This document shows positions 9,841 to 47,380 of a stretch of 64,000 nucleotides of DNA, piece after piece; within the stretch, counting starts at the first letter, position 1, and every line of letters begins with the position of its first letter. A program made the translations under genes and the position numbers. The stretch comes from Clostridia bacterium (GTDB lineage: Bacteria; Bacillota; Clostridia; TANB77; CAG-508). Where the stretch lies: the NCBI GenBank assembly GCA_022792135.1, contig JAAWAM010000032.1, positions 5,460 to 69,459 of the forward strand, read 5' to 3'. The notes under the pieces are model-generated. The model was given only the letters and a program-made list of their open reading frames with translations, did not search any database and was not told the origin of the DNA.

Positions 9841-11628
9841 ATGTTTCAAATAGAAGAGGAATTAAAAAAATTACCCCATAAACCTGGTGTTTATGTTATG
9901 AGAGATAAAGAAGATACGATTATTTATGTAGGGAAAGCCGTTTCATTAAAAAATAGAGTAAGGCAATATTTTAGAAAAACAGATAAAACAGCAAGAATTG
10001 AGAAAATGGTAAGTTTAATTGACCATTTTGAATACATTGTAGTTGATAATGAAGCAGAAGCATTAATTTTGGAATGTAATTTAATCAAAAAAAATAGACC
10101 AAAATTTAATGTTTTATTAAAGGATGACAAAACATATCCATATATTAAAATAGATTTAAAATCTGATTATCCAGGAGTTTTTATAACAAGAAGGGTAATG
10201 AATGATGGTTCGAAATATTTTGGTCCATATGCCAATCCTGGAGCAGCTAAAGAGATGGTAGATTTTATTAAACAAAAATATAAAATACGTCAATGTAGAA
10301 TGCTAAAGGAAAGAAACAGACCATGCTTAAATTATCATATCAATCGATGTTTAGCTCCTTGTATGGGATATGTAACCAAACAAGAGTATAGAGAACAAAT
10401 CAATGAGATTATGGATTTATTAGAGGGAAAAATAGATAAGATTGTAAAAGAACTAGAAAAGCAAATGCAAGAAGAATCTCAAAAGATGGAATTTGAAAAA
10501 GCAGCTATGCTAAGAGACCGAATCCAAGCCATTACGAGGGTATCGGAAAAGCAAAAAGTATCCAATCTATCAGAAAATGATATTGATGTGATTGGAATTG
10601 CAAAATCAGAATTACAAGTTTGTATTGAGATTTTCTTTGTTCGTGGAAGTAAAATGATAGGAAGAGAACATTATTTTTATACAGACCTAAAAGATATGGA
10701 AAACAAAGAAATTTTATCAGGATTTATCAAACAATATTATTTAGATAATCCGAATATCCCAAATAAAATTATGATACGAGAACAAATAGAAGATAAAGAG
10801 GCTATTGAAGAATGGTTATCCACAAATTTAGGAAAGAAAGTGGAGATTAAAAGCCCAAAACGAGGGGAAAAGCTACGTTTTGTAGAAATGGCAGAAAAGA
10901 ATGCAAAGGTTACATTAGAAAATAAAGAAAAAGATAAAAGTGAAGTTTTACTAGAATTAAAAGCAGTATTAAAGTTAGACAAATTACCAAGAAAGATTGA
11001 AACTTATGATATTTCCAATTTAGCAGGAGAGTATACTGTTGCTGGAATGTGTGTGCTGCAAGATGGCGTGATTAAAAAAAATCTGTCAAGAAGATTTAAA
11101 ATAAAAACAGTTTATGGACAAGATGATCCAAAATGTATGGAAGAAGTGATTACAAGAAGATTAAAACATTCGATTGAAAATCCGAAAGGCGGATTTGGAA
11201 GCTTACCAGATGTTATTTTTGCCGATGGTGGAATTACACAAATAAGAGCGACTAAGAAAGCAATCAAAAAATATAATTTAGAGATTCCTGTATTTGGTAT
11301 GGTTAAAAATGATAAACATCAGACAAGAGCTTTGATGGATGAAGAAAGAAATGAACTACCAATTTCACAGAATTTAATGAATTTAATTACTAATTTCCAA
11401 GATACGGTTCATGATACAGCAATTACTTACCATAGAAAATTGCGTGCAAAAAGTATTACAAAGTCAGAGCTAGATGAGATTTCGGGAATTGGAGAAGTGA
11501 AGAAAAAGGCTTTATTGAAACAATTTGGTAGTGTGGAGAAAATAAAACAGGCTTCCATAGAAGCATTAATGGAAGTAAAAGGCATTACGAAAGAATTAGC
11601 ACAAAAAATAAAGAAGGAAATAAGCTAG
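9841..11628 (+). CDS. uvrC: Excinuclease ABC subunit C
   Basis: GIY-YIG N-terminus (PGVYVMRDKEDTIIYVGKA), UvrBC domain and C-terminal HhH. Confidence 0.95.
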   Translation: MFQIEEELKKLPHKPGVYVMRDKEDTIIYVGKAVSLKNRVRQYFRKTDKTARIEKMVSLIDHFEYIVVDNEAEALILECNLIKKNRPKFNVLLKDDKTYPYIKIDLKSDYPGVFITRRVMNDGSKYFGPYANPGAAKEMVDFIKQKYKIRQCRMLKERNRPCLNYHINRCLAPCMGYVTKQEYREQINEIMDLLEGKIDKIVKELEKQMQEESQKMEFEKAAMLRDRIQAITRVSEKQKVSNLSENDIDVIGIAKSELQVCIEIFFVRGSKMIGREHYFYTDLKDMENKEILSGFIKQYYLDNPNIPNKIMIREQIEDKEAIEEWLSTNLGKKVEIKSPKRGEKLRFVEMAEKNAKVTLENKEKDKSEVLLELKAVLKLDKLPRKIETYDISNLAGEYTVAGMCVLQDGVIKKNLSRRFKIKTVYGQDDPKCMEEVITRRLKHSIENPKGGFGSLPDVIFADGGITQIRATKKAIKKYNLEIPVFGMVKNDKHQTRALMDEERNELPISQNLMNLITNFQDTVHDTAITYHRKLRAKSITKSELDEISGIGEVKKKALLKQFGSVEKIKQASIEALMEVKGITKELAQKIKKEIS

Positions 11629-11654
11629 AGTGTCGGCTTCTAGCTTATTTTTTC
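11622..11654 (+). terminator. uvrC terminator, which is also the 3'-terminal hairpin of the convergent minus-strand hairpin unit
   Basis: aagctaga / tctagctt stem with 9-nt loop gtgtcggct, then attttttcc. Confidence 0.7.
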
Positions 11655-11977
11655 CGTACTCCTACGAACCCTGCGAACAGGGTTTGTAGGAGTATACATA
11701 GCCCAACGAGCTTTGGTGAACTCATTGGGCTGAAAAACCCAAATACAATTGTTAGGAGAAAGAATGCTCCTAACAATGCGAACGCATAAATAATAATATT
11801 TTTGCGTTCGCAAGCTTCTCCCATAGCAGAAGCTGCAATCAGAAAGGTTATAAGAATGGCAATTTCCAATTGAGATGGACTGCCTTCTTTAAAAAAGTTA
11901 TAGATACTTGTGTATTTACACAAGTATAAAAACAAACTTCCTAGACAAGTGTCTAGGAAGATGTCAAATGGATTCAT
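11645..11977 (-). CDS. Hypothetical 110-aa hydrophobic ORF whose sequence is built from stacked perfect palindromes; coding status uncertain
   Basis: AAGGAGG SD 9 nt upstream of the ATG at 11977 and an extended -10 promoter (TGATATAAT at 12026-12034, TTGATT at 12050-12055). The ORF overlaps at least 8 perfect hairpins and is more GC-rich than its flanks. Confidence 0.35.
   Translation of the reverse strand: MNPFDIFLDTCLGSLFLYLCKYTSIYNFFKEGSPSQLEIAILITFLIAASAMGEACERKNIIIYAFALLGAFFLLTIVFGFFSPMSSPKLVGLCILLQTLFAGFVGVRKK
11657..11960 (-). other. Array of consecutive perfect hairpins (candidate structured RNA)
   Basis: Stems at 11657-11694 (nested 9+7 bp, UUCG loop on the minus strand), 11700-11731, 11749-11776, 11777-11812, 11813-11834, 11904-11927 and 11937-11960. 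The one imperfect pair (11707/11724) is C.A on plus but G.U on minus. Confidence 0.7.
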
Positions 11978-12122
11978 ATATATATACCTCCTTAGGACTC
12001 TTGCCGACACAAGAATATCATTTATATTATATCACGAAAGCAAGTAAAAAATCAATAGATTTACATAAATTAGAAAATTTGGAATTTTAGGAATAATTTA
12101 AAAAGTTTTGCATATATATATC

Positions 12123-14484: not shown

Positions 14485-16602
14485 ATGAAAGAAAAAGAAG
14501 AGAAAATCTTAGCATTCATGAAAGACAAAGACTATGTACCAATGAGGGCAAAAGAAATAGCAACCATGTTGCAAGTTCCCAAAAAGGAATACAATGAATT
14601 TTTAGAAACAATCGGTAAATTAGAATTAGAAATGAAAATTCAAAAAAACCGAAAAAATCGTTATCGAATCAGTGAAAAAATATACTATGAGGGGTATTAT
14701 CGAAAACACCAAAAAGGATTTGGATTTGTAAAAATAACAGAGCAGGAAGAGGAAATTTATATTGCTAAAGAACACGCACAAAATGCACTAAATGGAGACC
14801 GTGTTTTAATAGAAATTACAGAAGAAAAAAATAAAATAAAAAAAGCAGAAGGAAAAATTGTCAAAATATTAAAACATGAAAAAGATACTATAGTTGGCAT
14901 TTTTCAAAATAATAAAACCTTTGGATTTGTCGTTCCAGATGATAAAAACTTTGGAACAGATATCTATATTGCCAAAAAGAACTTTGGAAAAGCAAGAAGT
15001 CATCATAAGGTTTTAGTAAAAATTACAAAATATCCACAAAAAGGAAAAAAAGCAGAAGGGAAAGTAATCGAAGTACTAGGAAATGTAAATGAGGCAGGAG
15101 TGGATATGCTTTCTCTTATCAAAGAACATGGCTTACCAGCTAGATTTCCAGAGCCAGTAGTAGAAGAAGCAAAAAGATATGGGAATAAAGTAGATAAAAA
15201 AGAGATACCAAACCGAATTGACAAGAGAGACAAAATTATTTTTACAATTGATGGCGAAGATGCTAAAGATTTAGATGATGCAGTAAGGGTAGAAAAATTA
15301 GCAAATGGAAATTATCGATTGGAAGTTCACATAGCAGATGTAAGTTACTATGTAAAAGAGAATAGCTTATTAGACCAAGAAGCTCTCATACGAGGAACTA
15401 GTATTTATATGCTAGGAAGAGTTATCCCTATGTTGCCAAGAGAACTATCCAATGGAATTTGTAGTTTAAATGCAGGAGAGGATAGATTTACTTTATCTTG
15501 TAGTATGGAAATTGACCAGAAAGGAAAAGTCATCTCTTCTGAGATTTATAAAGGAATCATCCAAGTAACAGAAAGAATGAGTTATACAGACGTTCAAAAG
15601 ATAATAGATGGCTCAGACAAAAAAGTACTAGCAAAATATGAACCATATATCCCAGAATTTAAAAGGATGGAAGAATTGGCAAATATTCTAAAGAAGAGAA
15701 GATTCGAAAATGGATATTTAAATTTAGATATTCCAGAGAGCAAGATTGAATTAGATGTAGATGGTAGAGTAAGCAAGATTTCAAAATATGAAACAACCTT
15801 TGCCCATGAGATAATTGAACAATTTATGCTAATAGCCAATGAAACGATAGCAGAAAAATTTTATTGGTTAGAGGCACCATTTATTTATCGTGTACACGAA
15901 GAACCAGATTTAGAAAAGATACAAGAATTAAATAAATTCTTATTCAACTTTAAATTAAAAATAAAAGCAAATAAAGAGAATATTTATCCAAAGGAATTTG
16001 CAAAAGTATTAGATGAAATCAAAGGAACAGAAGAAGAAAAGGTAGTTTCTAATTTAGTACTTCGTACTTTAAAAGTGGCAAGATATGAAGCAGAAAATAA
16101 AGGACACTTTGGAATTGCTAGTCAATACTATTGTCATTTTACCTCTCCAATTCGAAGATATCCAGACTTATTCATACACAGAATTATTTCTAAATATTTA
16201 GAAGAAAACTATGATGTGGATGAAAGGTTTATCGAAAAATATAAACAAGAAGCGGAAGATCGAAGCAAACAATCTTCCGAAAGAGAAAAAATTGCAACTA
16301 TGGTAGAAAGAGAAGCAGAAGATATGAAAAAAGCAGAATATATGGAATCCAAAATAGGAGAAGAATACAATGGAATCATATCTTCAATTACTTCTTTTGG
16401 AATGTTTGTAGAACTAGAAAACACAGTAGAAGGATTGATTCGATTTGAAAATTTAGGAAATGAATATTTTATTTATGATGAGGATAGAAAAAGGCTGATA
16501 GGAGAAAGAACCAATACCATTTATAAAATTGGTGATAAGGTAAAAATTAGAGTGACAAAAGCCAATAAATTATTACGACAAATTGACTTTGAAATCCTAT
16601 AA
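14485..16602 (+). CDS. rnr: Ribonuclease R
   Basis: 705 aa with cold-shock-like N-domains, an RNB domain (DDAV..., HFTSPIRRYPD) and a C-terminal S1 domain. Confidence 0.95.
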   Translation: MKEKEEKILAFMKDKDYVPMRAKEIATMLQVPKKEYNEFLETIGKLELEMKIQKNRKNRYRISEKIYYEGYYRKHQKGFGFVKITEQEEEIYIAKEHAQNALNGDRVLIEITEEKNKIKKAEGKIVKILKHEKDTIVGIFQNNKTFGFVVPDDKNFGTDIYIAKKNFGKARSHHKVLVKITKYPQKGKKAEGKVIEVLGNVNEAGVDMLSLIKEHGLPARFPEPVVEEAKRYGNKVDKKEIPNRIDKRDKIIFTIDGEDAKDLDDAVRVEKLANGNYRLEVHIADVSYYVKENSLLDQEALIRGTSIYMLGRVIPMLPRELSNGICSLNAGEDRFTLSCSMEIDQKGKVISSEIYKGIIQVTERMSYTDVQKIIDGSDKKVLAKYEPYIPEFKRMEELANILKKRRFENGYLNLDIPESKIELDVDGRVSKISKYETTFAHEIIEQFMLIANETIAEKFYWLEAPFIYRVHEEPDLEKIQELNKFLFNFKLKIKANKENIYPKEFAKVLDEIKGTEEEKVVSNLVLRTLKVARYEAENKGHFGIASQYYCHFTSPIRRYPDLFIHRIISKYLEENYDVDERFIEKYKQEAEDRSKQSSEREKIATMVEREAEDMKKAEYMESKIGEEYNGIISSITSFGMFVELENTVEGLIRFENLGNEYFIYDEDRKRLIGERTNTIYKIGDKVKIRVTKANKLLRQIDFEIL

Positions 16603-16627: not shown

Positions 16628-16688
16628 AAAATCACAACTAAGAAGAAAAATAAAAACAAATCTTATTTTTCTTCTTAGTTGTGATTTT
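16628..16688. terminator. Very long (26-bp perfect stem) bidirectional terminator between rnr and the ger operon
   Basis: aaaatcacaactaagaagaaaaataa / ttatttttcttcttagttgtgatttt with a 9-nt loop. Confidence 0.75.
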
Positions 16689-16903: not shown

Positions 16904-18124
16904 TTAAATTTCATTAATTAGCATACCAGATTTCACAGAAGTATCAACTTCAACATCAAAAAAGGCATCTTTATAAATTTCAGACCAATGATAATCTTCA
17001 TATTCTTTTGAGGTAAAAAAGTTTTGAAGTGCATATCTACCAAATCCATTGATATCTGCTTTAAAATCTTTAGAAGATTTATAGAAGTAGTCAGAAAAGG
17101 TAGATTCTAAATAACGATTACAAGAATTAGAAACACGGTCTAAAACTTCAGGCGATAAATAATCAGAGTTTTCAGACATGGAGTAAATTCTACCAGCAAA
17201 AGAAAATTTAACTTTTATATAAGGATTGGGACTTGAAGTATCAACTTCTATATTAGAAGAATGGACAGGGGTAAGATAAATATCAAGATAGTTACTTTGG
17301 TTCAAAGGATCAGGGACAGAAACCAAAAAACGATCCAATTTATTTCTAGTAGTTAAAAAGGCAATGGTTTCTAAGGCATTCAATTCTCCTACTAATTTAT
17401 CTTCTTTAAAAACAGCAACACCAATGTTTTCAGCACTGTTTTTTCCTTGAATGGAAGATTCATTAGCCTTAATGTTATAATCTTTTTGGGAATCAATTTC
17501 ATCACTACTTTCTGATGGAGAAAGGCTAACTCCTCCTAAGATAGCATAAGGTTCACAAGTTTTACAAACTAAATTATTAAAAAAGTTTCCAATGGTAGCA
17601 TCTGGCATATAGCCAGTATAGTTACTAGAGTCAGTGAAAGTTTCGTAATATTTTGAAATCAAATTTTCAAGTTCTGGTTTGGTTTCTTCTAAATAGTATT
17701 TGGCAGTACATTTGCTAATAATGATGTTAGAAGAAGGTCTTACCTGTGTATCATTAATTAAGGTATAAATTTCATCAGAAATGCCTTGACTGGCTAATTC
17801 TTCAGAGAAAATCATAACTTTACAATGAGAAAGGTTAATCTGTTTTCCTAAATAACCATTGACTAAATTAATGGCATTGCTAAGAGAAGAAGCAGTAACG
17901 GTATTAATTAAGTCACTTGCTTTTTCGCTACCACTTGATTCGGCAGGGAGTGGCGTGGAAAATTGAAAGCTAACTTCTAGTTTATTAGTATCAGAAGTAT
18001 CCACAGCAATTGCTAATACATAAGCCAAATTGTCCATACTAAGATTTGAGTAGGAACTAGAAAATGCTAAGATAAAAATAAGAATTAAAACTAGAATCCA
18101 AATTGTTTTAAGAGTATGATTCAT
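16904..18124 (-). CDS. Spore germination protein, Ger(x)C lipoprotein family
   Basis: 406 aa, signal-peptide-like N-terminus, YVLAIAVD motif. Third gene of a gerA-type operon. Confidence 0.85.
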   Translation of the reverse strand: MNHTLKTIWILVLILIFILAFSSSYSNLSMDNLAYVLAIAVDTSDTNKLEVSFQFSTPLPAESSGSEKASDLINTVTASSLSNAINLVNGYLGKQINLSHCKVMIFSEELASQGISDEIYTLINDTQVRPSSNIIISKCTAKYYLEETKPELENLISKYYETFTDSSNYTGYMPDATIGNFFNNLVCKTCEPYAILGGVSLSPSESSDEIDSQKDYNIKANESSIQGKNSAENIGVAVFKEDKLVGELNALETIAFLTTRNKLDRFLVSVPDPLNQSNYLDIYLTPVHSSNIEVDTSSPNPYIKVKFSFAGRIYSMSENSDYLSPEVLDRVSNSCNRYLESTFSDYFYKSSKDFKADINGFGRYALQNFFTSKEYEDYHWSEIYKDAFFDVEVDTSVKSGMLINEI

Positions 18125-30274: not shown

Positions 30275-30850
30275 ATGGAAGAAAAAATTTTATCAATTCT
30301 TTTAGATATGCAAATTGATATCAAAAAAATAAAAACAGAGCAACAAGAGATGAAAAAAGAGCAACAAGAGATGAAGAAAGAGCAACAAGAGATGAAGAAA
30401 GAGCAACAAGAGATGAAGAAAGAGCAACAAGAAATGAAAAAAGAGCAACAAGAGATGAAGAAAGAGCAACAAGAAATGAAGAAAGAGCAACAAGAAATGA
30501 AGAAAGAGCTACAAGAGATGAAAACAGAACAACAAGGAATGAAGAAAGAGCTACAAGAGATGAAAACAGAACAACAAGGAATGAAGAAAGAACAACGAGG
30601 GATGAAAAAAGAACTACAAGGAGTAAAAGCAGAACAAAAGAGCATGAAGGAATTACAAGAAATAACCATAAAAAGACTAGATAGATTAGAAAAAGAAACA
30701 AGAATCAGTAGAATCAATATTGCTAAAATATTAGAAGTAAGTAATGAGACAAGAGAATTCTTAAAAAATACCATAAAACAAAACGAGAAAGAGCATGAAG
30801 AGTTTAATAGTAGAATTAATCAGTTAGAAATAGAAAAAATAATATCATAA
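30275..30850 (+). CDS. Coiled-coil protein with 15 tandem heptads (KEQQEMK-type); function unknown
   Basis: AGGAGGTG SD 6 nt upstream of the ATG at 30275. The repeat stays in frame, and a non-repetitive C-terminal 65 aa and terminator follow at about 30877-30905. Confidence 0.6.
   Translation: MEEKILSILLDMQIDIKKIKTEQQEMKKEQQEMKKEQQEMKKEQQEMKKEQQEMKKEQQEMKKEQQEMKKEQQEMKKELQEMKTEQQGMKKELQEMKTEQQGMKKEQRGMKKELQGVKAEQKSMKELQEITIKRLDRLEKETRISRINIAKILEVSNETREFLKNTIKQNEKEHEEFNSRINQLEIEKIIS
30338..30652 (+). repeat. 15 x 21-bp direct tandem repeat (8 near-identical units, then 7 degenerate units)
   Basis: Unit gagcaacaagagatgaa[ag]aaa, phased at 30338, 30359, 30380 and so on. Confidence 0.95.
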
Positions 30851-33516: not shown

Positions 33517-34353
33517 ATGTCTAAATCTGGCATAGTAAATGTGAGAATGGTTATCACAGAAGAAAAAATATTATCCAATATAGATAAAGTTCAAAAACTA
33601 ATCAATCCAAAAAGTAAGAAACAAATTGTTCAATTAGAAGATGATACTTACTTTAAAGATTTAGTAGAATCCATCAAGACGTATTTAATTGAATATCCAA
33701 AAAAGAAAAATTTTCCAGCAAGTGTATATAAAGCCGCTTATGGATTAGTTGAATTTGCAACCAATCAATTTGAAGAAAATACAAAAAAAATAGAAGAATT
33801 AATTAGACAAAGAGAACAAAATATAGCGTTAGCAGGTCAGTTAAAAGAAGTTATGGAGGCAACTGTTAATAAAGAAAAGGATTGGAAAGACCAAGTAAAG
33901 AAAGCAGAAAATAATTTTTCAGAAGATATTATAGAAACTTTAACTATTGTAGGAAAAGCGAAAAGTAATAAATCACAAAATTATCAAGATGCTATAAAAT
34001 TATTAAATGCTAGAGTCAATAATTTAGAGTCTAATTTACATATAGAAATTGATATGGAAAGAATTGAAGATAGATCAAAGGCTTTAAGTTACATTGGGAT
34101 TGAAATAGCAGATGCTTTAAAATCAATTCCAACACCAGCAGAAGAAATAGAATCACAAGCAGAAGAACAAATTCAAAATGTAGAAGCAGAACAACAATAT
34201 GTACAAGATACTACATTTGAAGCAAAACCAAGCTTATGGCAAAGATTTAAAAATAGTAAAATAGTAAGAGCTGTGAAAATGATTACTAGAATTAGAATTG
34301 TACTAGATTATTCAGATGCGCTTCCAGAGGGAAGAGGAGAAATGAATCAATAA
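33517..34353 (+). CDS. Hypothetical protein, largely helical/coiled-coil
   Basis: 278-aa ORF with AAAGGAGGG SD and terminator at about 34383-34400. No recognisable family. Confidence 0.5.
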   Translation: MSKSGIVNVRMVITEEKILSNIDKVQKLINPKSKKQIVQLEDDTYFKDLVESIKTYLIEYPKKKNFPASVYKAAYGLVEFATNQFEENTKKIEELIRQREQNIALAGQLKEVMEATVNKEKDWKDQVKKAENNFSEDIIETLTIVGKAKSNKSQNYQDAIKLLNARVNNLESNLHIEIDMERIEDRSKALSYIGIEIADALKSIPTPAEEIESQAEEQIQNVEAEQQYVQDTTFEAKPSLWQRFKNSKIVRAVKMITRIRIVLDYSDALPEGRGEMNQ

Positions 34354-34412
34354 AAATACCAGAAAAGAGTTAGTTAAATTAGGACTAATTCTTTTTTTGC
34401 TAAAAGGAAATA

Positions 34413-34675
34413 AATAAGCAGCGGCTGCTAACCACTGCTTATTCTGGTATCACGATGAGTGATACCAGTTCATGAAACTTATCGGAATGAACCGACAAAG
34501 TTTCATTTTCTAAATAGACTTGATCAAGTCTATTTAGAAAATTTTTATTTGTCCAGTAAAATTTTACTGGACAAATTCCTCTCTCCTTATTGTAAATAAG
34601 AAGAGAGATTTTTTCCCAAAAGCTGAAAAAGTCAGCTTTTGAGATAGTGCGAAATTCGCTGAAAGCGAATTTCGC
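34413..34675 (-). other. Array of eight consecutive perfect hairpins/palindromes (candidate structured RNA)
   Basis: Stems at 34413-34443, 34444-34468, 34472-34506, 34505-34542 (38-nt perfect palindrome), 34547-34576 (30-nt palindrome), 34579-34607, 34617-34641 and 34649-34675. The only mismatch (34585/34601) is C.A on plus but G.U on minus. Confidence 0.7.
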
Positions 34676-34693
34676 TAAAATAGTAATACTCAT
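34439..34693 (-). CDS. Hypothetical 84-aa ORF built from stacked perfect palindromes; coding status uncertain
   Basis: GAGGAGG SD 7 nt upstream of the ATG at 34693 and a promoter TTGTAA-17-TAAAAT (34743-34715, minus). The stop lies inside the terminal hairpin, and the amino-acid composition is unprotein-like. Confidence 0.3.
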   Translation of the reverse strand: MSITILAKFAFSEFRTISKADFFSFWEKISLLIYNKERGICPVKFYWTNKNFLNRLDQVYLENETLSVHSDKFHELVSLIVIPE

Positions 34694-34786
34694 AAAAAAT
34701 CCTCCTCACCAACCATTTTATCATAATTTAACATAATTTACAAGCAGCATTTTTAGAACTTACAAAACAAAAATTCGAAAAATGGA

Positions 34787-34815
34787 ATTTGACTTTTAGA
34801 AAAGAATATAGTATA
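34787..34815 (+). promoter_or_regulatory. Consensus sigma-A promoter upstream of rnj
   Basis: TTGACT, 17 nt, TATAAT, about 200 nt upstream of the rnj start. Confidence 0.65.
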
Positions 34816-35013
34816 ATGCAAAAAGTAGTGAATAATATTGATCGGAATTTATGAAAACAATGGAGTCAATATGATGGGTAAGAGAGAAAAAAAGCCACAT
34901 ATAAAAAACTCTATTAATTTTGTGCAGATGAATTAAAAATAGTAAATTAGGTCAAAATTAGTTTAGAAGGTTAAACTAATTTTTTTGTCAGTTAAAAAAG
35001 GAAAGGAGAATAT

Positions 35014-36912
35014 ATGACAGAAGAAAATAAAAGAAATCAAAAAGCAGAAGAAAAAACAACTTCTAAAAGAAGAACAACAACCAAAAAAATAGAAAATGGG
35101 AACAAAAAAGGAATGGCAAGAAAGCCATATCAAAAAAGAGAAGTAAACAAAGAAGGGAAAAAAATAGAAGAAAGAACAAGCAACAAAACAAAAGCAAGAA
35201 CAACAAACAGAAAAACAAAAAATAGTAACAAAGAAAATAATAAAATATTTAAAAAGTCAAAATTAAAAATTATTCCACTAGGGGGATTACACGAAATTGG
35301 GAAAAATATTACCGTATTTGAATATGAAAATGAAATCATTGTAGTAGACTGTGGATTATCTTTCCCAGAAGATGATATGCTTGGAATCGATTTAGTTATA
35401 CCAGATATCACATACCTAGAAAAAAATGTAGATAAAATTAAGGGATTAATTATTACACATGGGCATGAGGACCATATTGGTTCTGTACCTTATTTACGAA
35501 AGAAAATCAATATACCAATTTATGCACCACGATTGGCAGCAGGATTAATTCGAAACAAATTAGAAGAGCACAAATTAGTGAGAAGTACAAAGTTAATAGA
35601 AGTAATGCAAGGACAAACCATTCAATTAGGAAAAAATTTCAAAGTAGAATTTATTAGAAGTTCACACAGTATACCAGATTCCGTTATGTTAGCAATCACT
35701 ACACCAGCAGGAACGGTATTACACACAGGAGATTTTAAAATAGATTATACACCAATTGATGGTAAAATTATGGACTTTGGAAGAATTGCAGAACTTGGAA
35801 ACCAAGGGATTTTAGCATTAATGTCAGATAGTACAAACGCAGAAAGAAAAGGTTCAACTATGTCTGAAAGGTCAGTAGGAGAAGTCTTTGAAAAATTATT
35901 TTTACATTGTACCAAAAGAATTGTAGTAGCCACATTTGCATCCAATGTACACAGAGTACAGCAAATTGTTAATTCAGCAGTAAGACAAAACAGAAAAATA
36001 GCAGTTTGTGGTAGAAGTATGATTAATATGATAACAACAGCAAGAGAATTAGGATACATTCAATGTCCAGAAAATATCTTTATTGATATTGACATGATAA
36101 ACAATTATCCAGATGAACAATTAGTAATCATTACGACAGGAAGTCAAGGAGAACCAATGTCAGCCCTAACAAGAATGGCAGCAGGAGACCATAGGAAAGT
36201 GAAAATCACACCAAATGATTTAGTTATCATTTCAGCAACACCAATACCAGGAAACGAAAAATTTGTATCCAAAGTAATTGATGACTTAATGCAAATAGGA
36301 GCAGAAGTAGTATACAGTTCATTAGAAGATATCCATGTTTCAGGACACGCTTGCCAAGAAGAACAAAAATTAATTTTGGCGTTAGCTAAACCGAAATACT
36401 TTATACCAGTTCATGGAGAATACAGGCAATTAATTGCACATAGTGAAACGGCACAAAGTATGGGAATTGAGAAAGACAATATCATTATGATGTCTAATGG
36501 TAGAGTACTAGAAATTGGAGAAGAGGGAGCAGAATTTACAACAACTGTACCAAGTGGAAAAGTGTTAGTAGACGGACTTGGCGTTGGAGACGTCGGAAAT
36601 ATTGTGTTAAGAGATAGGCAACACTTATCACAAGATGGATTAATTGTAATTGTATTAACCATGGATTCTCAAACAGGAGAAGTAGTAGCTGGACCAGATG
36701 TCATATCAAGAGGATTTGTTTATGTAAGAGAATCTGAAAATTTAATGGATGATGTAAAATCAGTGGTAAGACATGAAATTAAAAAATGTGAAGAAAGAGG
36801 AATTCGCGATTGGGCAACCATTAAATCAACTACAAGACAGAATTTAAGAGATTATATTTTCATGAAAACAAAAAGGAATCCAATGATCATTCCGATCATT
36901 ATGGAAATCTAA
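35014..36912 (+). CDS. rnj: Ribonuclease J (beta-CASP metallo-beta-lactamase) with a Lys/Thr/Asn-rich N-terminal extension of about 85 aa
   Basis: KLKIIPLGGLHEIGKN and HGHEDHIG motifs, with beta-CASP and C-terminal domains. The extension is open in frame from the ATG at 35014. Confidence 0.9.
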   Translation: MTEENKRNQKAEEKTTSKRRTTTKKIENGNKKGMARKPYQKREVNKEGKKIEERTSNKTKARTTNRKTKNSNKENNKIFKKSKLKIIPLGGLHEIGKNITVFEYENEIIVVDCGLSFPEDDMLGIDLVIPDITYLEKNVDKIKGLIITHGHEDHIGSVPYLRKKINIPIYAPRLAAGLIRNKLEEHKLVRSTKLIEVMQGQTIQLGKNFKVEFIRSSHSIPDSVMLAITTPAGTVLHTGDFKIDYTPIDGKIMDFGRIAELGNQGILALMSDSTNAERKGSTMSERSVGEVFEKLFLHCTKRIVVATFASNVHRVQQIVNSAVRQNRKIAVCGRSMINMITTARELGYIQCPENIFIDIDMINNYPDEQLVIITTGSQGEPMSALTRMAAGDHRKVKITPNDLVIISATPIPGNEKFVSKVIDDLMQIGAEVVYSSLEDIHVSGHACQEEQKLILALAKPKYFIPVHGEYRQLIAHSETAQSMGIEKDNIIMMSNGRVLEIGEEGAEFTTTVPSGKVLVDGLGVGDVGNIVLRDRQHLSQDGLIVIVLTMDSQTGEVVAGPDVISRGFVYVRESENLMDDVKSVVRHEIKKCEERGIRDWATIKSTTRQNLRDYIFMKTKRNPMIIPIIMEI

Positions 36913-43209: not shown

Positions 43210-43560
43210 ATGGCAAGAGTAAAAACAGCAAGAACAACAAGAGCAAGACATAAGAAAATATTAAAACAAGCAAAAGGATACTATGGAGCAAAAAGTTATA
43301 GATTTAGAAATGCTAACCAAGCAGTTATGAAATCTTTATCATATGCTTATGTAGGAAGAAAAGATAGAAAAAGTAATTTTAGAAAATTATGGATCGCAAG
43401 AATTAATGCTGCTGCAAGAATGAATGGAACAACTTACAGTAAAATGATAGCAGGATTAAAAAAGGCGAATATTACAATTAACAGAAAAATGTTAGCAGAA
43501 GTTGCTGTATCTGATCCAAAAGCATTTACAGAGATTGCTGAAATGGCAAAAAAAGCGTAA
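43210..43560 (+). CDS. rplT: 50S ribosomal protein L20
   Basis: [27 protein letters not shown].... Confidence 0.95.
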
Positions 43561-43607
43561 TAGAAAAGAAAAATCACTATTAGGAAAAATTCCCAATAGC
43601 GATTTTT

Positions 43608-44018
43608 TTATTGCTTTTTCATTTTAGGTTTTGAAATAAGAGCAGCTAGATATCCAAAGAATACAGCAGCAGCAATACCACCAGCAGCAGCCTTAACACC
43701 ACCTGTAAAAGCACCAACCAAACCAGTTTCTTTCACAGCTTCAATGGCACCTTTTGCTAAATTATAGCCAAAACCAGTAAGAGGAACTGTAGCACCAGCA
43801 CCAGCAAAATCAACTAAATATTGATAAATTCCTAAACCACCTAGAATAGCTCCAGCAGTAACAAATATAACTAAAATTTTAGCTGGTGTTAATTTAGTTT
43901 TATCAATTAAAATTTGGCCAATAATACAGATAATTCCACCAGTAACAAAACATTTTAGTAACATCATCCAATTGAAAACATTAGCCCAATTCATATCCAT
44001 ATCAATCCATCCTTTCAT
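43608..44018 (-). CDS. spoVAE: Stage V sporulation protein AE (SpoVAEB-type)
   Basis: Small four-TM protein last in the spoVAC-AD-AE order. The start may be an internal Met near 44000. Confidence 0.8.
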   Translation of the reverse strand: MKGWIDMDMNWANVFNWMMLLKCFVTGGIICIIGQILIDKTKLTPAKILVIFVTAGAILGGLGIYQYLVDFAGAGATVPLTGFGYNLAKGAIEAVKETGLVGAFTGGVKAAAGGIAAAVFFGYLAALISKPKMKKQ

Positions 44019-44047
44019 GGGACATTTTCCTGTCCCTCATGTTTCAT

Positions 44048-45049
44048 TTAAATTTCGATGCTAATTGCATGAGCAATTCCAGGAATACTTTCACCTTGTT
44101 GAGAAGTTGTGGAATTGGTTAAAGCACCAGTTGCGATTAATAATAGTTTTTTCAATTTCTTATCTTTTAATTGTTTAAACAAATAGCCTGAAAATACTGT
44201 ACCACAACAAGCACAACCACTACCACCTGAATGAGTATCTTGTGCATTTTTATCAAAAATTAAAACACCACAATCATTATAATTGGATTTGATATTGTAT
44301 CCTTGTGATTTGGCAATATCAATAGCAATTTCTTTTCCAATATGACCTAAATCTCCACTAATAATAGCATCATAATAATTCGGACTTCTACCAGTATCTA
44401 AGAAGTGAGTGATCAAAGTATCAGCAAATGCTGGAGCCATGGCAGCTCCCATATTATTAGCATCCTTAATTCCCATATCCACAATCTTTCCAGGTGTAAT
44501 ATGTGTAATGTAAGGACCTTCGCCATTTTTAGATAAAATAGCAGCACCAGATCCAGTAACTGTCCATTGACTGGTAGGTGGACGTTGATTTCCTAATTCA
44601 AGAGGAAATCGGAATTGTTTTTCAGCACTACAAAAGTGACTAGAAGTAGCACATAAAACATGATTAGCAAATCCCTCTATTGCCATTGCACCTAAGCTCA
44701 TGGATTCTACAAAAGTAGAACAAGCACCAAATACACCAAAAAAGGGAATATTGGCTTCTCTTAAACCAAAACTAGAAGAAATACATTGATTTAATAAATC
44801 ACCTGCGAACATACAATCAATATCGCTACTAGAAATTCCAGATTTAGAAATAACTGTATTGACAGTTTCCTTTATAATCTTACTTTCAGCTTTTTCCCAA
44901 GTATTTTCTCCCCAGAATTCATCTTCTAAAGTTTGGTCAAAATATTTAGCCAGAGGACCTTGAGATTCTTTTGGTCCAACAATGCTGGCACAATCAACAA
45001 TGGTTGGGGGGGTATTGAATTTTATAGTTTGTTTTCCTATTTTTTCCAA
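44048..45049 (-). CDS. spoVAD: Stage V sporulation protein AD (thiolase-like fold, DPA binding)
   Basis: 333 aa with the typical SpoVAD sequence (GPKESQGPL, FAGDLLNQ). Confidence 0.9.
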   Translation of the reverse strand: MEKIGKQTIKFNTPPTIVDCASIVGPKESQGPLAKYFDQTLEDEFWGENTWEKAESKIIKETVNTVISKSGISSSDIDCMFAGDLLNQCISSSFGLREANIPFFGVFGACSTFVESMSLGAMAIEGFANHVLCATSSHFCSAEKQFRFPLELGNQRPPTSQWTVTGSGAAILSKNGEGPYITHITPGKIVDMGIKDANNMGAAMAPAFADTLITHFLDTGRSPNYYDAIISGDLGHIGKEIAIDIAKSQGYNIKSNYNDCGVLIFDKNAQDTHSGGSGCACCGTVFSGYLFKQLKDKKLKKLLLIATGALTNSTTSQQGESIPGIAHAISIEI

Positions 45050-45074
45050 GATAATATCTCCTTCCTATTTAAAA

Positions 45075-45539
45075 TTAAACTAAAGTAATACTTTGTGTAT
45101 TAAATATTAAAAAAATAATGCCAACTAAAATCGAAGCAGAAATACCAAAAACAAGAACTGGTCCTGCTACAGTAAACATCTTTCCACCTACGCCCATCAC
45201 ATAACCTTCTGACTTATATTCCATGGCTGGGGAAACGATAGAATTGGCAAATCCAGTAATTGGAATTAAAGAACCAGCACCAGCAAATTTTCCAATTTTA
45301 TTAAATAAGTTCAATCCTGTTAAAAAAGCTGAAATTCCAATCAATAAAATGGAAACAATTGTACCAGAAGTCTGAGTATCAAAACCACGTTCTTTACATA
45401 TATTAAGAATAACTTGTCCAACGGTACAAATGAATCCACCAACCCAAAATGCATTCAAACAATTTTTTAAAATAGGAGAATTGGGAGATTTTTTATCCAC
45501 ATATTCTTGATAAGTTTGTTTTGTTTCTAAAGGATTCAT
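45075..45539 (-). CDS. spoVAC: Stage V sporulation protein AC
   Basis: 154 aa, four TM helices, KNCLNAFWVGGFICTVGQ motif. Confidence 0.9.
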   Translation of the reverse strand: MNPLETKQTYQEYVDKKSPNSPILKNCLNAFWVGGFICTVGQVILNICKERGFDTQTSGTIVSILLIGISAFLTGLNLFNKIGKFAGAGSLIPITGFANSIVSPAMEYKSEGYVMGVGGKMFTVAGPVLVFGISASILVGIIFLIFNTQSITLV

Positions 45540-45552
45540 AATATTCTACCTC

Positions 45553-45771
45553 CTAACTATCTTTGCGATTTAAATCAAGTGTAAAACTTAAATCCAAATC
45601 CACAAAATATTCAGAAATTTTATCTCCATCAATAGTAGCTCTTTGCTCTAATATGGTAACCTCTGATAAATAATCAATGGTTTTAGAAGCTTCTGCAATC
45701 GCCTTTACAATGGCATCTTTCCAAGAAACTGTAGAGTTTCCTGTTATCATTAAATGTTTTTTTATATCCAT
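45553..45771 (-). CDS. Dodecin-like small flavin-binding protein
   Basis: 72 aa; ITGNSTVSWKDAIVKAIAEASKTI resembles the dodecin (GxS..SwedA...A...A.kt) pattern. It ends 13 nt upstream of spoVAC. Confidence 0.6.
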   Translation of the reverse strand: MDIKKHLMITGNSTVSWKDAIVKAIAEASKTIDYLSEVTILEQRATIDGDKISEYFVDLDLSFTLDLNRKDS

Positions 45772-45872
45772 ATCAAACCTCCAAAAAAACTTTTACCAAT
45801 ATCTTTTCCAAAAGTTAGAAAAAATATACAAAAATAGTAGAAAATATAATCAAAAAATTATATAATCGACTT

Positions 45873-45997
45873 AATGGCTAAAGAGGGACAGGTACACATT
45901 AGCCATTAAATGAAAATGGTCAAAGAAGAACCGTCCCTAATTAACCAAAACAAAAAAATGGTCAAGGAAGAACCGTCCCCAATTGACCAATTGACCA
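45873..45997. repeat. Cluster of three REP-like hairpin repeats (one inverted, two direct)
   Basis: 45873-45907 is aatggctaaagagggacaggtacacattagccatt. 45915-45947 is aatggtcaaagaagaaccgtccctaattaacca. 45957-45997 is aatggtcaaggaagaaccgtccccaattgacca plus a duplicated attgacca. Confidence 0.8.
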
Positions 45998-46006
45998 GAG
46001 GAGGAA

Positions 46007-47380
46007 ATGATGATAGATAGAGTAAGAGAAGTGGCTTTAAAAACATTATATCGTATTGACAAAGAAGGGGCTTATTCTAATCTGGCGTTAGATGAGCAAA
46101 TTCGACAAAATAGAAAGGAGTTAAAGGAAAAGGATATTGGTTTGATTTCAGAAATTGTATATGGAGTGACCACTTGGAGATTGACATTAGATGAAATTGT
46201 TAAGAAATATTCTAGTATTCGTTTAAAGAAAATTTCTCCGTGGATTTTAAATATCTTAAGAATGTCGATTTATCAGATTGTATTTTTAGATAAAATACCA
46301 AAGTCAGCAGCTGTAAATGAAGGGGTAAATTTAGCAAAAAGGTATGGACATAAAAGTAGTAGCGGTTTTACCAATGCTATTTTGAGAAAAGTAAGTAAAA
46401 AAGATTATGAAGAGATGTTTGAAATAAAAGATGAGATAGAAAGGATTTCAAAAACAACTTCTATGCCAAGGTGGATGATTGAGGAATTAAAAAAAGAAGG
46501 ATTAGAGATTGAAAAAGTAGAAGAAATTTGTAAGAATTCTAATAGAAGACCTGAAATTTCCATTCGAGTGAATCGATTAAAAACAAATCCACAAGACTTA
46601 AAGCAAAAATTACAAGAAACAGGAATTGAAGTTGAAGAAGGAATTTTACAAGATTTTTTAAGAATAAGTAATGTAAAGAGTATAGAAAAAAATAAGGAAT
46701 TTAAAGAAGGAATGTTTACAGTGCAAGATGAGGCAGCAGGTTTAACAGCTATTTTATTAAATCCGAAACCAAAAGAAATCATCTTAGATGCTTGTAGTGC
46801 ACCAGGAGGAAAAACCACATATATAGCAGAAATTATGGAAAACAAAGGTGAAATAGAGGCATGGGATCTTTATGAACATAGAACAAAATTAGTAGAACAA
46901 ACAGCTAAAAGATTGGGAATTGAAATCATAACAACACAAGAACAAGATGCGACAAAATATAAAGAAGAATATTTTGAGAAGTTTGATAAAATTTTGTTAG
47001 ATGTACCATGTTTAGGGATTGGTGTTTTGAAAAGAAAGCCAGATATTAAATGGCAAAAAAAGCCAGAAGACATAGAAGAGATAACAAAAATTCAATATAA
47101 AATATTACAAAATTGTTCAAAATATTTAAAACCTGGAGGAGAAATGATTTATTCAACTTGTAGTATTTTCAAACAAGAAAATCAACACATAATAGAAAAA
47201 TTTTTAGAAGAAAATTCAAATTTTAATATACAAGAAAATCTATTCCTAATGAATAGTAACTGTAATAGTAACAGTGGGAATCTATATTTTAAACAATTTT
47301 TAGTTCATAAGTGTTATTTGCAGGTGTATCAAAATGAAAAAACAGATGGATTTTTCATCTGTAAGTTATGGAAAAAATGA
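46007..47380 (+). CDS. rsmB: 16S rRNA (cytosine967-C5)-methyltransferase
   Basis: NusB-like N-domain plus Nop2/Sun catalytic domain (DACSAPGGKT, LDVPCLGIGV, YSTCS). Confidence 0.85.
   Translation: MMIDRVREVALKTLYRIDKEGAYSNLALDEQIRQNRKELKEKDIGLISEIVYGVTTWRLTLDEIVKKYSSIRLKKISPWILNILRMSIYQIVFLDKIPKSAAVNEGVNLAKRYGHKSSSGFTNAILRKVSKKDYEEMFEIKDEIERISKTTSMPRWMIEELKKEGLEIEKVEEICKNSNRRPEISIRVNRLKTNPQDLKQKLQETGIEVEEGILQDFLRISNVKSIEKNKEFKEGMFTVQDEAAGLTAILLNPKPKEIILDACSAPGGKTTYIAEIMENKGEIEAWDLYEHRTKLVEQTAKRLGIEIITTQEQDATKYKEEYFEKFDKILLDVPCLGIGVLKRKPDIKWQKKPEDIEEITKIQYKILQNCSKYLKPGGEMIYSTCSIFKQENQHIIEKFLEENSNFNIQENLFLMNSNCNSNSGNLYFKQFLVHKCYLQVYQNEKTDGFFICKLWKK

Follow-up and report, generated by a model that had tools for sequence, protein, structure and literature searches.

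A Hairpin-Tiled Gene between p278 and rnj

The stretch of DNA analysed here (hereafter the window) is 64,000 nucleotides (nt) long and belongs to the assembly of a Clostridia bacterium (GCA_022792135.1, contig JAAWAM010000032.1). Between the gene of a 278-residue protein (p278) and rnj, its minus strand carries a small gene, termed locus 2, the open reading frame (ORF) of which encodes the 84-residue protein p84 and is tiled by eight successive hairpins, H1 to H8 (Table 1). Locus 2 codes for a protein and at the same time forms a constrained chain of hairpins. p84 is identical to P0002 and to MCI8444745.1, annotated as "hypothetical protein HFJ37_06360" of a Clostridia metagenome-assembled genome. 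A sister element, locus 1, shares the architecture of locus 2 and is unrelated to it in sequence, as had been described in an earlier, sequence-only reading of this DNA.

That reading had also placed on the minus strand a promoter-like site, a Shine-Dalgarno (SD) sequence, an ATG and a terminator containing the stop codon, in a unit convergent with p278 and divergent from rnj. All of these were recovered at the positions and in the orientation claimed, and together they support a putative discrete minus-strand transcription unit with an exceptional hairpin chain. The promoter-like site was compared in a set of eight assemblies of the same species, composed of the window and seven metagenomic contigs (L001 to L007), and is unchanged in L001, L002 and L007. 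In the AT-rich region of locus 2, matches of this 9/12 grade exceed the shuffle expectation by a factor of only about two. RNAfold predictions leave the SD and the first six codons free of structure. At the other end, H8, its hairpin read at 34444-34412, scores as a predicted intrinsic terminator, with a stem of 15 pairs, five of them G-C, followed by ATTTCCTTTT, and a scan of the region returned three terminator-like sites for 0.2 expected.

Table 1. Features of locus 2, its neighbours and locus 1 (window coordinates).
Feature	Coordinates	Strand	Description and basis
Locus 2 unit	34413-34743	-	Promoter to terminator; sequence reading
Promoter-like site	34715..34743	-	TTGTAA-17-TAAAAT with TG extended -10; consensus scan, 9/12 matches + TG
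Shine-Dalgarno	34701..34710	-	GGTGAGGAGG, GGAGG core 7 nt ahead of the ATG at 34693; sequence reading
p84 ORF	34439..34693	-	84 residues; ORF list
H1	34649..34675	-	12-bp perfect stem, 3-nt loop; 13 bp in other strains
H2	34614..34644	-	13 bp including one sense-strand G.U, 5-nt loop
H3	34579..34607	-	13 bp including one G.U, 3-nt loop
H4	34547..34576	-	Perfect 30-nt palindrome; as RNA 13 bp + 4-nt loop
H5	34505..34542	-	Perfect 38-nt palindrome in the window strain; 15-17 bp as RNA
H6	34472..34506	-	14 bp, 1-nt bulge, one G.U, 6-nt loop
H7	34444..34468	-	10-bp perfect stem, 5-nt loop
H8 + U-rich tail	34403..34443	-	Intrinsic-terminator-like, one G.U; TAA stop (34441-34439) in the 5' arm
p278 gene	33517-34353	+	278 residues; upstream of locus 2, convergent
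p278 terminator-like hairpin	34365..34408	+	AGAGTTAGT...ACTAATTCT then T7; sequence reading, alignment
rnj	35014-36912	+	Divergent from locus 2
Locus 1	11618..12055	-	Same layout as locus 2
Locus 1 ORF	11645-11977	-	110 residues, four hydrophobic segments

The Hairpin Array

In the RNAfold structure, the eight hairpins have stems of 10-17 bp, are separated by linkers of 0-6 nt and cover ~80% of the transcript. The minimum free energy (MFE) of locus 2 is -145.3 kcal/mol, against -64.8 +/- 5.0 kcal/mol for dinucleotide shuffles (z = -16.2), and none of 100 shuffles folds as well. The sequence-only reading had counted eight abutting perfect hairpins with a single mismatch, a G.U pair on the minus strand only. 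The eight hairpins do abut, and the non-Watson-Crick pairs are indeed G.U on the minus strand and A.C mismatches on the plus strand. Perfect Watson-Crick stems, however, number five (10-19 bp), H6 carries a bulge, and H2, H3, H6 and H8 each contain one in-stem G.U pair; with four such pairs, the single mismatch was an undercount. The 30- and 38-nt perfect palindromes, corresponding to H4 and H5, proved exact to the nucleotide. In other strains H5 has two to three mismatches, at its centre and outer pairs, and a T-run follows it on the plus strand. A preference of the stems for a codon phase was considered and dropped: locus 2 has four stems of class A, three of class B and none of pure class C, locus 1 mixes all classes, and the bias is not significant.

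Such an array stands far outside the background of the window. The MFE of 320-nt windows averages -50 kcal/mol (sd 13) over the 64 kb, with locus 2 at -145, locus 1 at -137 and the next best at -88; locus 2 lies ~7 sd beyond every other window except locus 1. Perfect stems of at least 9 bp number 25, five of them in locus 2 and four in locus 1, which leaves a density outside both loci of ~0.25 per kb, as compared with 0.43 per kb in relatives. Hairpin density was thus confirmed to exceed the background by both the sliding MFE and the stem count, and only the two loci stand out. The relatives were sampled as ~1.3 Mb from 80 related species, in which neither the stem scan nor the 320-nt MFE windows revealed a comparable array; clusters of at least three perfect stems there are ordinary terminator stacks. 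The suggestion, made earlier from the sequence, that such elements form a genome-wide class finds no support in these relatives. Scans of IMG/VR and JGI metagenome contigs with family profiles for both loci returned nothing, and a literature search retrieved no description of ORFs tiled by hairpins in the manner of locus 2. The hairpin-tiled ORF is regarded as an extreme, so far undescribed overlay of RNA structure on coding sequence, and is placed outside any named family.

The origin of the arms was also sought in other DNA, as had been proposed earlier. Against the window and the 1.3 Mb from relatives, the arms have only chance matches of 11-14 nt, and locus 2 has no match in phage and plasmid collections; the arms are not copies of anything searched, and the idea that they are repeats or antisense to other genes was dropped. 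No direct-repeat family was found within locus 2. Rfam yielded no match at gathering thresholds in the 64 kb, the best sub-threshold score being 29.7 bits for a gathering score of 64.5.

p84 Is a Protein

Several observations bear on the coding status of the ORF. When random hairpin arrays were generated with the geometry and composition of locus 2, only 0.16% of them kept its frame open (P = 0.0016). Between the window allele and those of L001, L003 and L007, dN/dS is 0.23-0.32, a value of low precision drawn from only 7-13 substitutions. A search with phmmer over 1.8 billion representative proteins identified one true distant relative, P0008, a 125-residue protein that is 38% identical to p84 over 101 aligned residues (BLASTP E = 7e-16) and has N- and C-terminal motifs in common with it. 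The gene of P0008, on contig L093 from a sister species, occupies the same slot in the same orientation between rnj and the 278-residue gene, where the flanks are 86% (rnj) and 83% (p278) identical to those of the window. The indels between the two genes are whole codons, and a 20-codon deletion in the p84 gene relative to P0008 maps inside H4. A 130-residue ORF in the same slot of contig L032 is a remote third member (hhalign E = 6e-5). Word-indexed protein searches returned near-identical copies of p84 only, and nothing beyond P0008 itself for the latter.

The AlphaFold2 model of p84, computed from a five-sequence alignment, displays, with moderate confidence, a small alpha/beta fold (pLDDT 72, pTM 0.59), and the protein has no hydrophobic helix; p84 is predicted to be a cytosolic alpha/beta protein. 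The single-sequence model of P0008 is too poor for use (pLDDT 58). Foldseek found no analogue of the p84 model in the PDB, and Pfam, PHROGs, PADLOC and NCBIfam returned sub-threshold noise only for p84, P0008, the locus 1 protein and p278.

It had been proposed from the sequence that the 84-residue product is the mere translation of palindromes, unless clear homologues were to be found. The open frame, the dN/dS values, the syntenic homologues in L093 and L032 and the AlphaFold2 model lead us to reject this proposal, and the finding of P0008 itself speaks against p84 not being a protein. The ORF of locus 2 is a protein-coding gene under purifying selection with syntenic homologues, and p84 is an orphan protein that evolves much faster than its neighbours.

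These results bear directly on the possibility that locus 2 is a non-coding structured RNA (a small RNA, a decoy or an array of double-stranded RNA precursors) in which the ORF is incidental. The transcript consists almost wholly of hairpins, has its own promoter and terminator, and encodes a protein with no functional match in Pfam, PHROGs, PADLOC, NCBIfam or the PDB. It also resembles the OLE, ROOL, GOLLD and raiA non-coding RNAs of Rfam, which are multi-hairpin RNAs of a few hundred nt from Firmicutes. Unlike these, locus 2 matches no Rfam family, shows no conserved tertiary-type architecture and has a conserved ORF. Furthermore, the improbably open frame, the canonical SD with its spacing, the dN/dS values, the full-length homology by whole-codon indels to a gene without hairpins in the same slot, and the lack of matches of the arms in the window, relatives, phages and plasmids all argue for a gene, which makes an incidental ORF very unlikely.

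RNA Structure Written over the Protein Code

The coding sequence (CDS) of p84 folds much better than its protein demands. The native CDS has an MFE of -118.8 kcal/mol, as compared with -57.8 +/- 5.4 after permutation of synonymous codons (z = -11) and -48.9 +/- 5.4 after recoding with the genome codon usage (z = -13); the control gene hup reaches z = -1 against synonymous recoding. The stems use the G/C-rich codons GCG, CGC, CTG, GTG and TCG, expected to be rare in a genome of 30% G+C. As it relies mostly on synonymous positions and on rare codons rich in G and C, the structure is an additional layer over the protein code and does not follow from the protein itself. Coding sequences are normally thought to tolerate modest local structure only.

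The fold is also asymmetric between the strands. In the eight alleles of both loci, the sense strand folds 9-25 kcal/mol better than the antisense strand; in those of locus 2 the difference is ~18 kcal/mol, with 7-9 G.U pairs in sense and 0-1 in antisense. Fold energy and G.U pairs both support the structure being favoured on the minus (sense) strand, as the earlier reading had it, and the sense-only G.U pairs favour a constraint acting in RNA rather than in DNA.

The p278-rnj Slot in Related Species

The order acs-p278-[gap]-rnj-gltX is conserved in ~35 species, in which the gap measures 210-1900 nt and harbors unrelated small ORFs or nothing. No hairpin array was found in this slot in any of them, and the idea of an array conserved at the same site was abandoned. 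Examples of the slot, among contigs L013 to L092, are L018 9143-9547, L013 9305-9613, L032 9195-9584 and L063 9350-9730. L013 and L018 have in common a family of ORFs of 118 and 135 residues, L063 carries a 127-residue plus-strand ORF, and the slot of L032 has an additional 315-residue plus-strand ORF.

Where the gene itself is present, its mRNA is less structured. The P0008 mRNA is only mildly so (z = -4.4; z = -2 against synonymous permutation), and 45 of the 89 stem pairs of the window are able to form in it at homologous positions, for 32-41 in slid controls. The L032 mRNA is intermediate (z = -6.4). As neither homologue is a hairpin array, the array is lineage-specific, and its extreme form is carried by the window species only. 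The tiny p84 family appears confined to one variable slot, between p278 and rnj, in a genus of uncultured gut Clostridia.

The p278 gene has a terminator-like hairpin of its own, upstream of the array, which stands back-to-back with H8 and is conserved in L093. It is missing from the list of the consensus scan because it has too few G-C pairs. This hairpin matters for an explanation at the DNA level, according to which locus 2 would be a cis element (protein-binding palindromes, cruciforms, an operator array, an insulator or a terminator stack) or a cluster of mobile palindromes of the REP, MITE or Rickettsia palindromic element (RPE) type. Perfect palindromes of 30 and 38 bp, a position between two plus-strand genes, an H5 that reads with its T-run as a plus-strand terminator, and an IS4-family insertion right beside the array in some strains would all suit such an element. 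REP/BIME, Correia/MITEs and Rickettsia palindromic elements, the latter translated in frame, are multi-copy families of 25-40 nt units with a consensus. Locus 2 resembles them by its ORF-readable palindromic units and by the clustering of these between convergent genes. In contrast to these families, however, its eight units all differ, form no repeat family, and do not recur in the window or in the sequence from relatives (64 kb plus 1.3 Mb, or ~1.4 Mb together). With p278 having its own conserved terminator, the slot being devoid of an array in ~35 species, the strand-asymmetric G.U pairs arguing for RNA, and the evidence for coding, we hold a DNA-level element to be extremely improbable. 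Both this and the non-coding RNA explanation are largely excluded, on account of the coding evidence, the absence of a repeat family, the separate p278 terminator and the lack of an Rfam match.

Strain Variation at Locus 2

On either side of locus 2, the seven conspecific contigs barely differ from the window, with dS = 0.000 for p278 and acs. Inside the p84 gene, dS rises to 0.06-0.11, and over 4244 nt of alignment between L001 and the window all 11 mismatches fall within 34508-34707. Divergence peaks sharply at the p84 gene between strains that are identical elsewhere. The substitutions avoid the stems: among the eight assemblies, the gene has 13 variable sites, 10 of them in loops or linkers, three in terminal stem pairs and none inside stems. 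The 11 substitutions separating the window from L001 shift the MFE by 0.8 kcal/mol, whereas random sets matched in number and spectrum raise it by 18 +/- 7 kcal/mol; random sets that keep the MFE as well as the real ones were 0/600 and 5/600 (P < 0.01).

In L003 to L006, an IS4-family element is inserted at 34710/34711, exactly between the -10 box and the SD, and takes away the native promoter of the p84 gene. It spans positions 1-55 of L003, 1-30 of L004 and 1-1422 of L005 and L006, and its transposase is split into ORFs of 153 and 241 residues. Several contigs break at or beside the array.

Locus 1, the Sister Element

Locus 1 possesses a promoter TTGATT-18-TATAAT (10/12 matches + TG), a 5' stem-loop, the SD AAGGAGG, about nine hairpins and a terminator with the stop codon inside it. 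Three other alleles are available (L008, L009 and L011), 72-77% identical to that of the window in protein, in flanks that are 98.8-99.5% (L008, L011) or 92% (L009) identical. Identity drops sharply, to 72-87%, in the segment 11600-12060, within 5.8 kb that are 99-100% identical elsewhere. Furthermore, the gene tree conflicts with that of the flanks, the window allele being ~75% identical to all others and L008 and L009 87-96% to each other. This pattern points to old alleles kept or exchanged by recombination, probably under balancing or diversifying selection, and not to uniform hypermutation.

The alleles have dS of 0.5-0.8 and dN/dS of 0.2-0.3, and every one of them keeps ~-0.41 kcal/mol per nt (z = -9 to -14 against synonymous recoding). 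Compensatory double changes are found at 9 of 119 consensus pairs (four alleles), and the 5'-terminal stem-loop covaries. Each allele builds the first in-ORF hairpin (11931-11965, codons 5-15) from a sequence of its own. As locus 1 demonstrates, the hairpin design can be old and maintained. As a separate observation, this first hairpin with its T-rich run reads as an intrinsic terminator or attenuator; a hairpin with a T-run is kept there in 4/4 alleles, with differing stem sequences and registers (in L011, CCGGCACTAG...TAGTAGCCGG then T8).

A possible 5'-3' pairing is found at both loci. In the MFE structures, the SD pairs with a motif located 3' of the terminator stem (UUUCCUU or CCUUCUU, windows 34397-34405 and 11601-11612), UUUCCUU being the post-terminator partner of the SD in locus 2. 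In locus 1 the pairing is kept in 4/4 alleles via G-C/G-U changes, and the motif is also the antisense of the last uvrC codons. In the centroid structure of locus 2 the SD is unpaired. A lock of the hok type was not adopted: the motif sits at or past the terminator tail, L093 lacks it, and the uvrC codons account for it in locus 1.

This pairing belongs to the case for an addiction or defence module resembling type I toxin-antitoxin systems, in which the folded mRNA would keep a harmful protein untranslated until processing or loss of an antisense RNA. Type I toxins (hok/sok, aapA1/IsoA1, fst) are short hydrophobic peptides with highly structured mRNAs, and those of hok and aapA1 harbor a 5'-3' lock. 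Locus 2, too, is small and stands alone between a promoter and a terminator of its own, its mRNA is an extremely structured succession of hairpins, and it is polymorphic, dispensable and located in a variable slot; the SD pairing of both loci might be analogous to the lock, the locus 1 product is small, hydrophobic and endowed with four transmembrane segments (4-TM), and weak plus-strand promoter-like sites lie inside the array. Unlike type I toxins, p84 is a soluble-looking protein of 84 residues, not hydrophobic and of predicted alpha/beta fold, and the locus 1 protein, although hydrophobic, has 110 residues. The accessible SD of the centroid, the position of the anti-SD-like motif at or beyond the expected 3' end together with its uvrC overlap and its absence in L093, and the lack of PADLOC or Pfam matches also go against a toxin. 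No convincing antisense gene was found, the plus-strand promoter matches of 9/12 grade being at chance level (7 for 3.7 +/- 2.1 expected). Such a module is, in our view, decidedly unlikely.

Among the related species, L023 17890-18050 carries a tiny SD-preceded ORF with a TTG start and ~30 codons, hydrophobic, lying within three consecutive hairpins and finishing with a terminator. It may be a miniature of the locus 2 design or a type I-toxin-like gene.

Origin and Role of the Hairpins

The reading that we favour, with confidence slightly better than even, is that locus 2 is a monocistronic orphan protein gene whose mRNA is armoured by hairpins, which template switching probably created and selection for RNA stability or translation control has retained. 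The stems would arise during replication at quasi-palindromes, where one arm would be copied as the reverse complement of the other, so that one arm would keep ancestral residues and the other be overwritten. Template switching can make, or repair, a perfect stem in a single event (Monttinen & Loytynoja 2022, PMC8794818), and it is stimulated by high transcription and dependent on the direction of replication (Kim et al. 2013, PMC3820800). Replication would meet both loci head-on, the leading strand being the plus strand to judge from the cumulative GC skew and from most genes. H4 best fits such an origin, its 3' arm being conserved with the P0008 gene of L093 (11/13 nt) and its 5' arm not (5/13 nt), with the conserved C...YW codons retained in one arm. 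H4 and H5 are palindromic through their centre, with zero spacer, which for two of eight stems is by itself not significant (P about 0.09). Locus 2 thus resembles known template-switch hairpins by its perfect arms, its centre palindromes, the rewritten arm of H4 and the link to transcription and replication direction. The template-switch hairpins described, in contrast, consist of one stem each and come mostly from RNA genes or reporter constructs, whereas here eight stems tile an ORF in frame and are kept between alleles. No individual switch event could be reconstructed at locus 2.

As to their role, RNase III usually needs ~20 bp, and endonucleases such as RNase Y attack single-stranded RNA in the RNA decay of Firmicutes. 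Each stem of locus 2 lies below the length usually needed by RNase III, and the linkers would leave almost no single-stranded RNA for enzymes of the RNase Y kind. With the SD and first codons open for ribosome loading and a strong terminator hairpin at the end, the mRNA would be long-lived, and ribosomes would read through it slowly, opening hairpin after hairpin. Known mRNA stabilisers, found 5' of ermC, aprE and cryIIIA or 3' as REP or terminator hairpins, bar RNases from the ends of transcripts. The 5'-terminal stem-loop of locus 1 and the strong terminator hairpins of both loci are similar to them; unlike these end-placed stabilisers, the hairpins of locus 2 make up the whole coding body. 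Strain polymorphism and dispensability suggest an accessory function of the conflict type for the protein, possibly in immunity, toxin-like or phage-related.

A different account retains the protein gene and the template switching, and takes the hairpins as debris of a quasi-palindrome hotspot, a neutral by-product without RNA function. A strongly transcribed head-on gene among co-directional genes would stall replication forks, and repeated fold-back copying would perfect and extend its inverted repeats. Much of what was said above suits this account equally: both hairpin genes lie on the minus strand with the plus strand as leading strand, in two stems the palindrome extends across the loop, a feature not needed for RNA pairing, H4 has one conserved and one overwritten arm, the gene is a divergence peak between near-identical strains, the sister-species homologue has no array, and template switching makes perfect stems and is promoted by transcription (PMC8794818, PMC3820800). 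The other minus-strand genes and operons of the window, however, are without arrays, and the density of stems outside both loci is not above that of relatives. Debris would also not be expected to display allele substitutions that keep the fold energy, non-Watson-Crick pairs that are G.U in the sense strand, an SD and first six codons free of structure, and, in locus 1, an array kept over dS of 0.5-0.8 with compensatory changes. We consider a purely neutral origin unlikely.

A number of points weigh against an armoured and selected mRNA. Relatives with a homologous gene manage without the array, and the IS insertion between the -10 box and the SD means that the p84 gene is dispensable, at least from its native promoter. 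The p84 family is limited to three divergent members and matches no known domain or fold, and a stabilising or throttling role of the hairpins is one that we only infer. Direct footprints of template switching at locus 2 are weak: arm asymmetry is clear for H4 only, weak for H7 and H1, and the other stems are symmetrical, and no reverse-complement template was found for a cluster of five substitutions at codons 2-6. Among the assemblies, only that of the window has 30- and 38-nt palindromes that are perfect throughout, and the assembler may have collapsed near-palindromic arms at those few positions. The sense-strand G.U bias is partly compositional, sense shuffles folding ~11 kcal/mol better than antisense shuffles, and a C-to-T bias on the non-template strand could be its source. 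Finally, the avoidance of stems by allele substitutions could reflect mutation aimed at unpaired bases rather than selection.

A bolder and, in our view, unlikely extension of the armoured-mRNA reading is that hairpin-armoured coding mRNAs form a distinct selected class, in which a chain of hairpins below RNase III length is itself functional, sits on balanced-polymorphic conflict genes of gut Clostridia, and is written by template switching. Such a message could be nuclease-proof and survive RNase-based stress or abortive-infection responses, or it could serve as a decoy resembling double-stranded RNA or as a dual-function RNA.

Whichever origin applies, two unrelated small genes combine a selected protein code with a near-saturating hairpin chain, mainly via synonymous and rare-codon choice. 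If the hairpins are selected, the loci are a natural experiment on how far mRNA structure can go while the message is still translated, with implications for RNase Y, J and III decay in Firmicutes, for the limits of the ribosome helicase and for the design of stable synthetic mRNAs. Should they be mutational debris instead, they represent an unusually clean record of template switching reshaping a protein gene within one genus, and of transcription-replication conflict as a local driver. Either way, the sharp rise in divergence on backgrounds that are otherwise identical makes it likely that balancing or diversifying selection acts on these small orphan genes in a gut commensal.

Neighbouring and Minor Features

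A plus-strand promoter-like site, TTGACT-17-TATAAT (11/12 matches), is located at 34789-34817 and presumably serves rnj. It stands back-to-back with the promoter of the hairpin gene, the -35 boxes being 46 nt apart. The ~190-nt leader of rnj contains a perfect 12-bp hairpin (34954-34983).

Elsewhere in the window, a perfect 26-bp stem with a 9-nt loop is found at 16628-16688, between convergent genes at 14485-16602 (+) and 16904-18124 (-), and is unusually long for a hairpin resembling a bidirectional terminator. At ~43440-46080, several 320-nt windows have MFE values of -78 to -88 kcal/mol on the minus strand, markedly lower than the -56 to -72 kcal/mol of the plus strand; they lie over minus-strand genes at 43608-45539 and the region upstream, and have no Rfam match. 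Finally, a 21-nt tandem repeat at 30337-30620 (13.5 copies, 87% matches, consensus AGAGCAACAAGAGATGAAGAA) is embedded in overlapping ORFs on both strands, in which it would encode a repeat of a seven-residue peptide.

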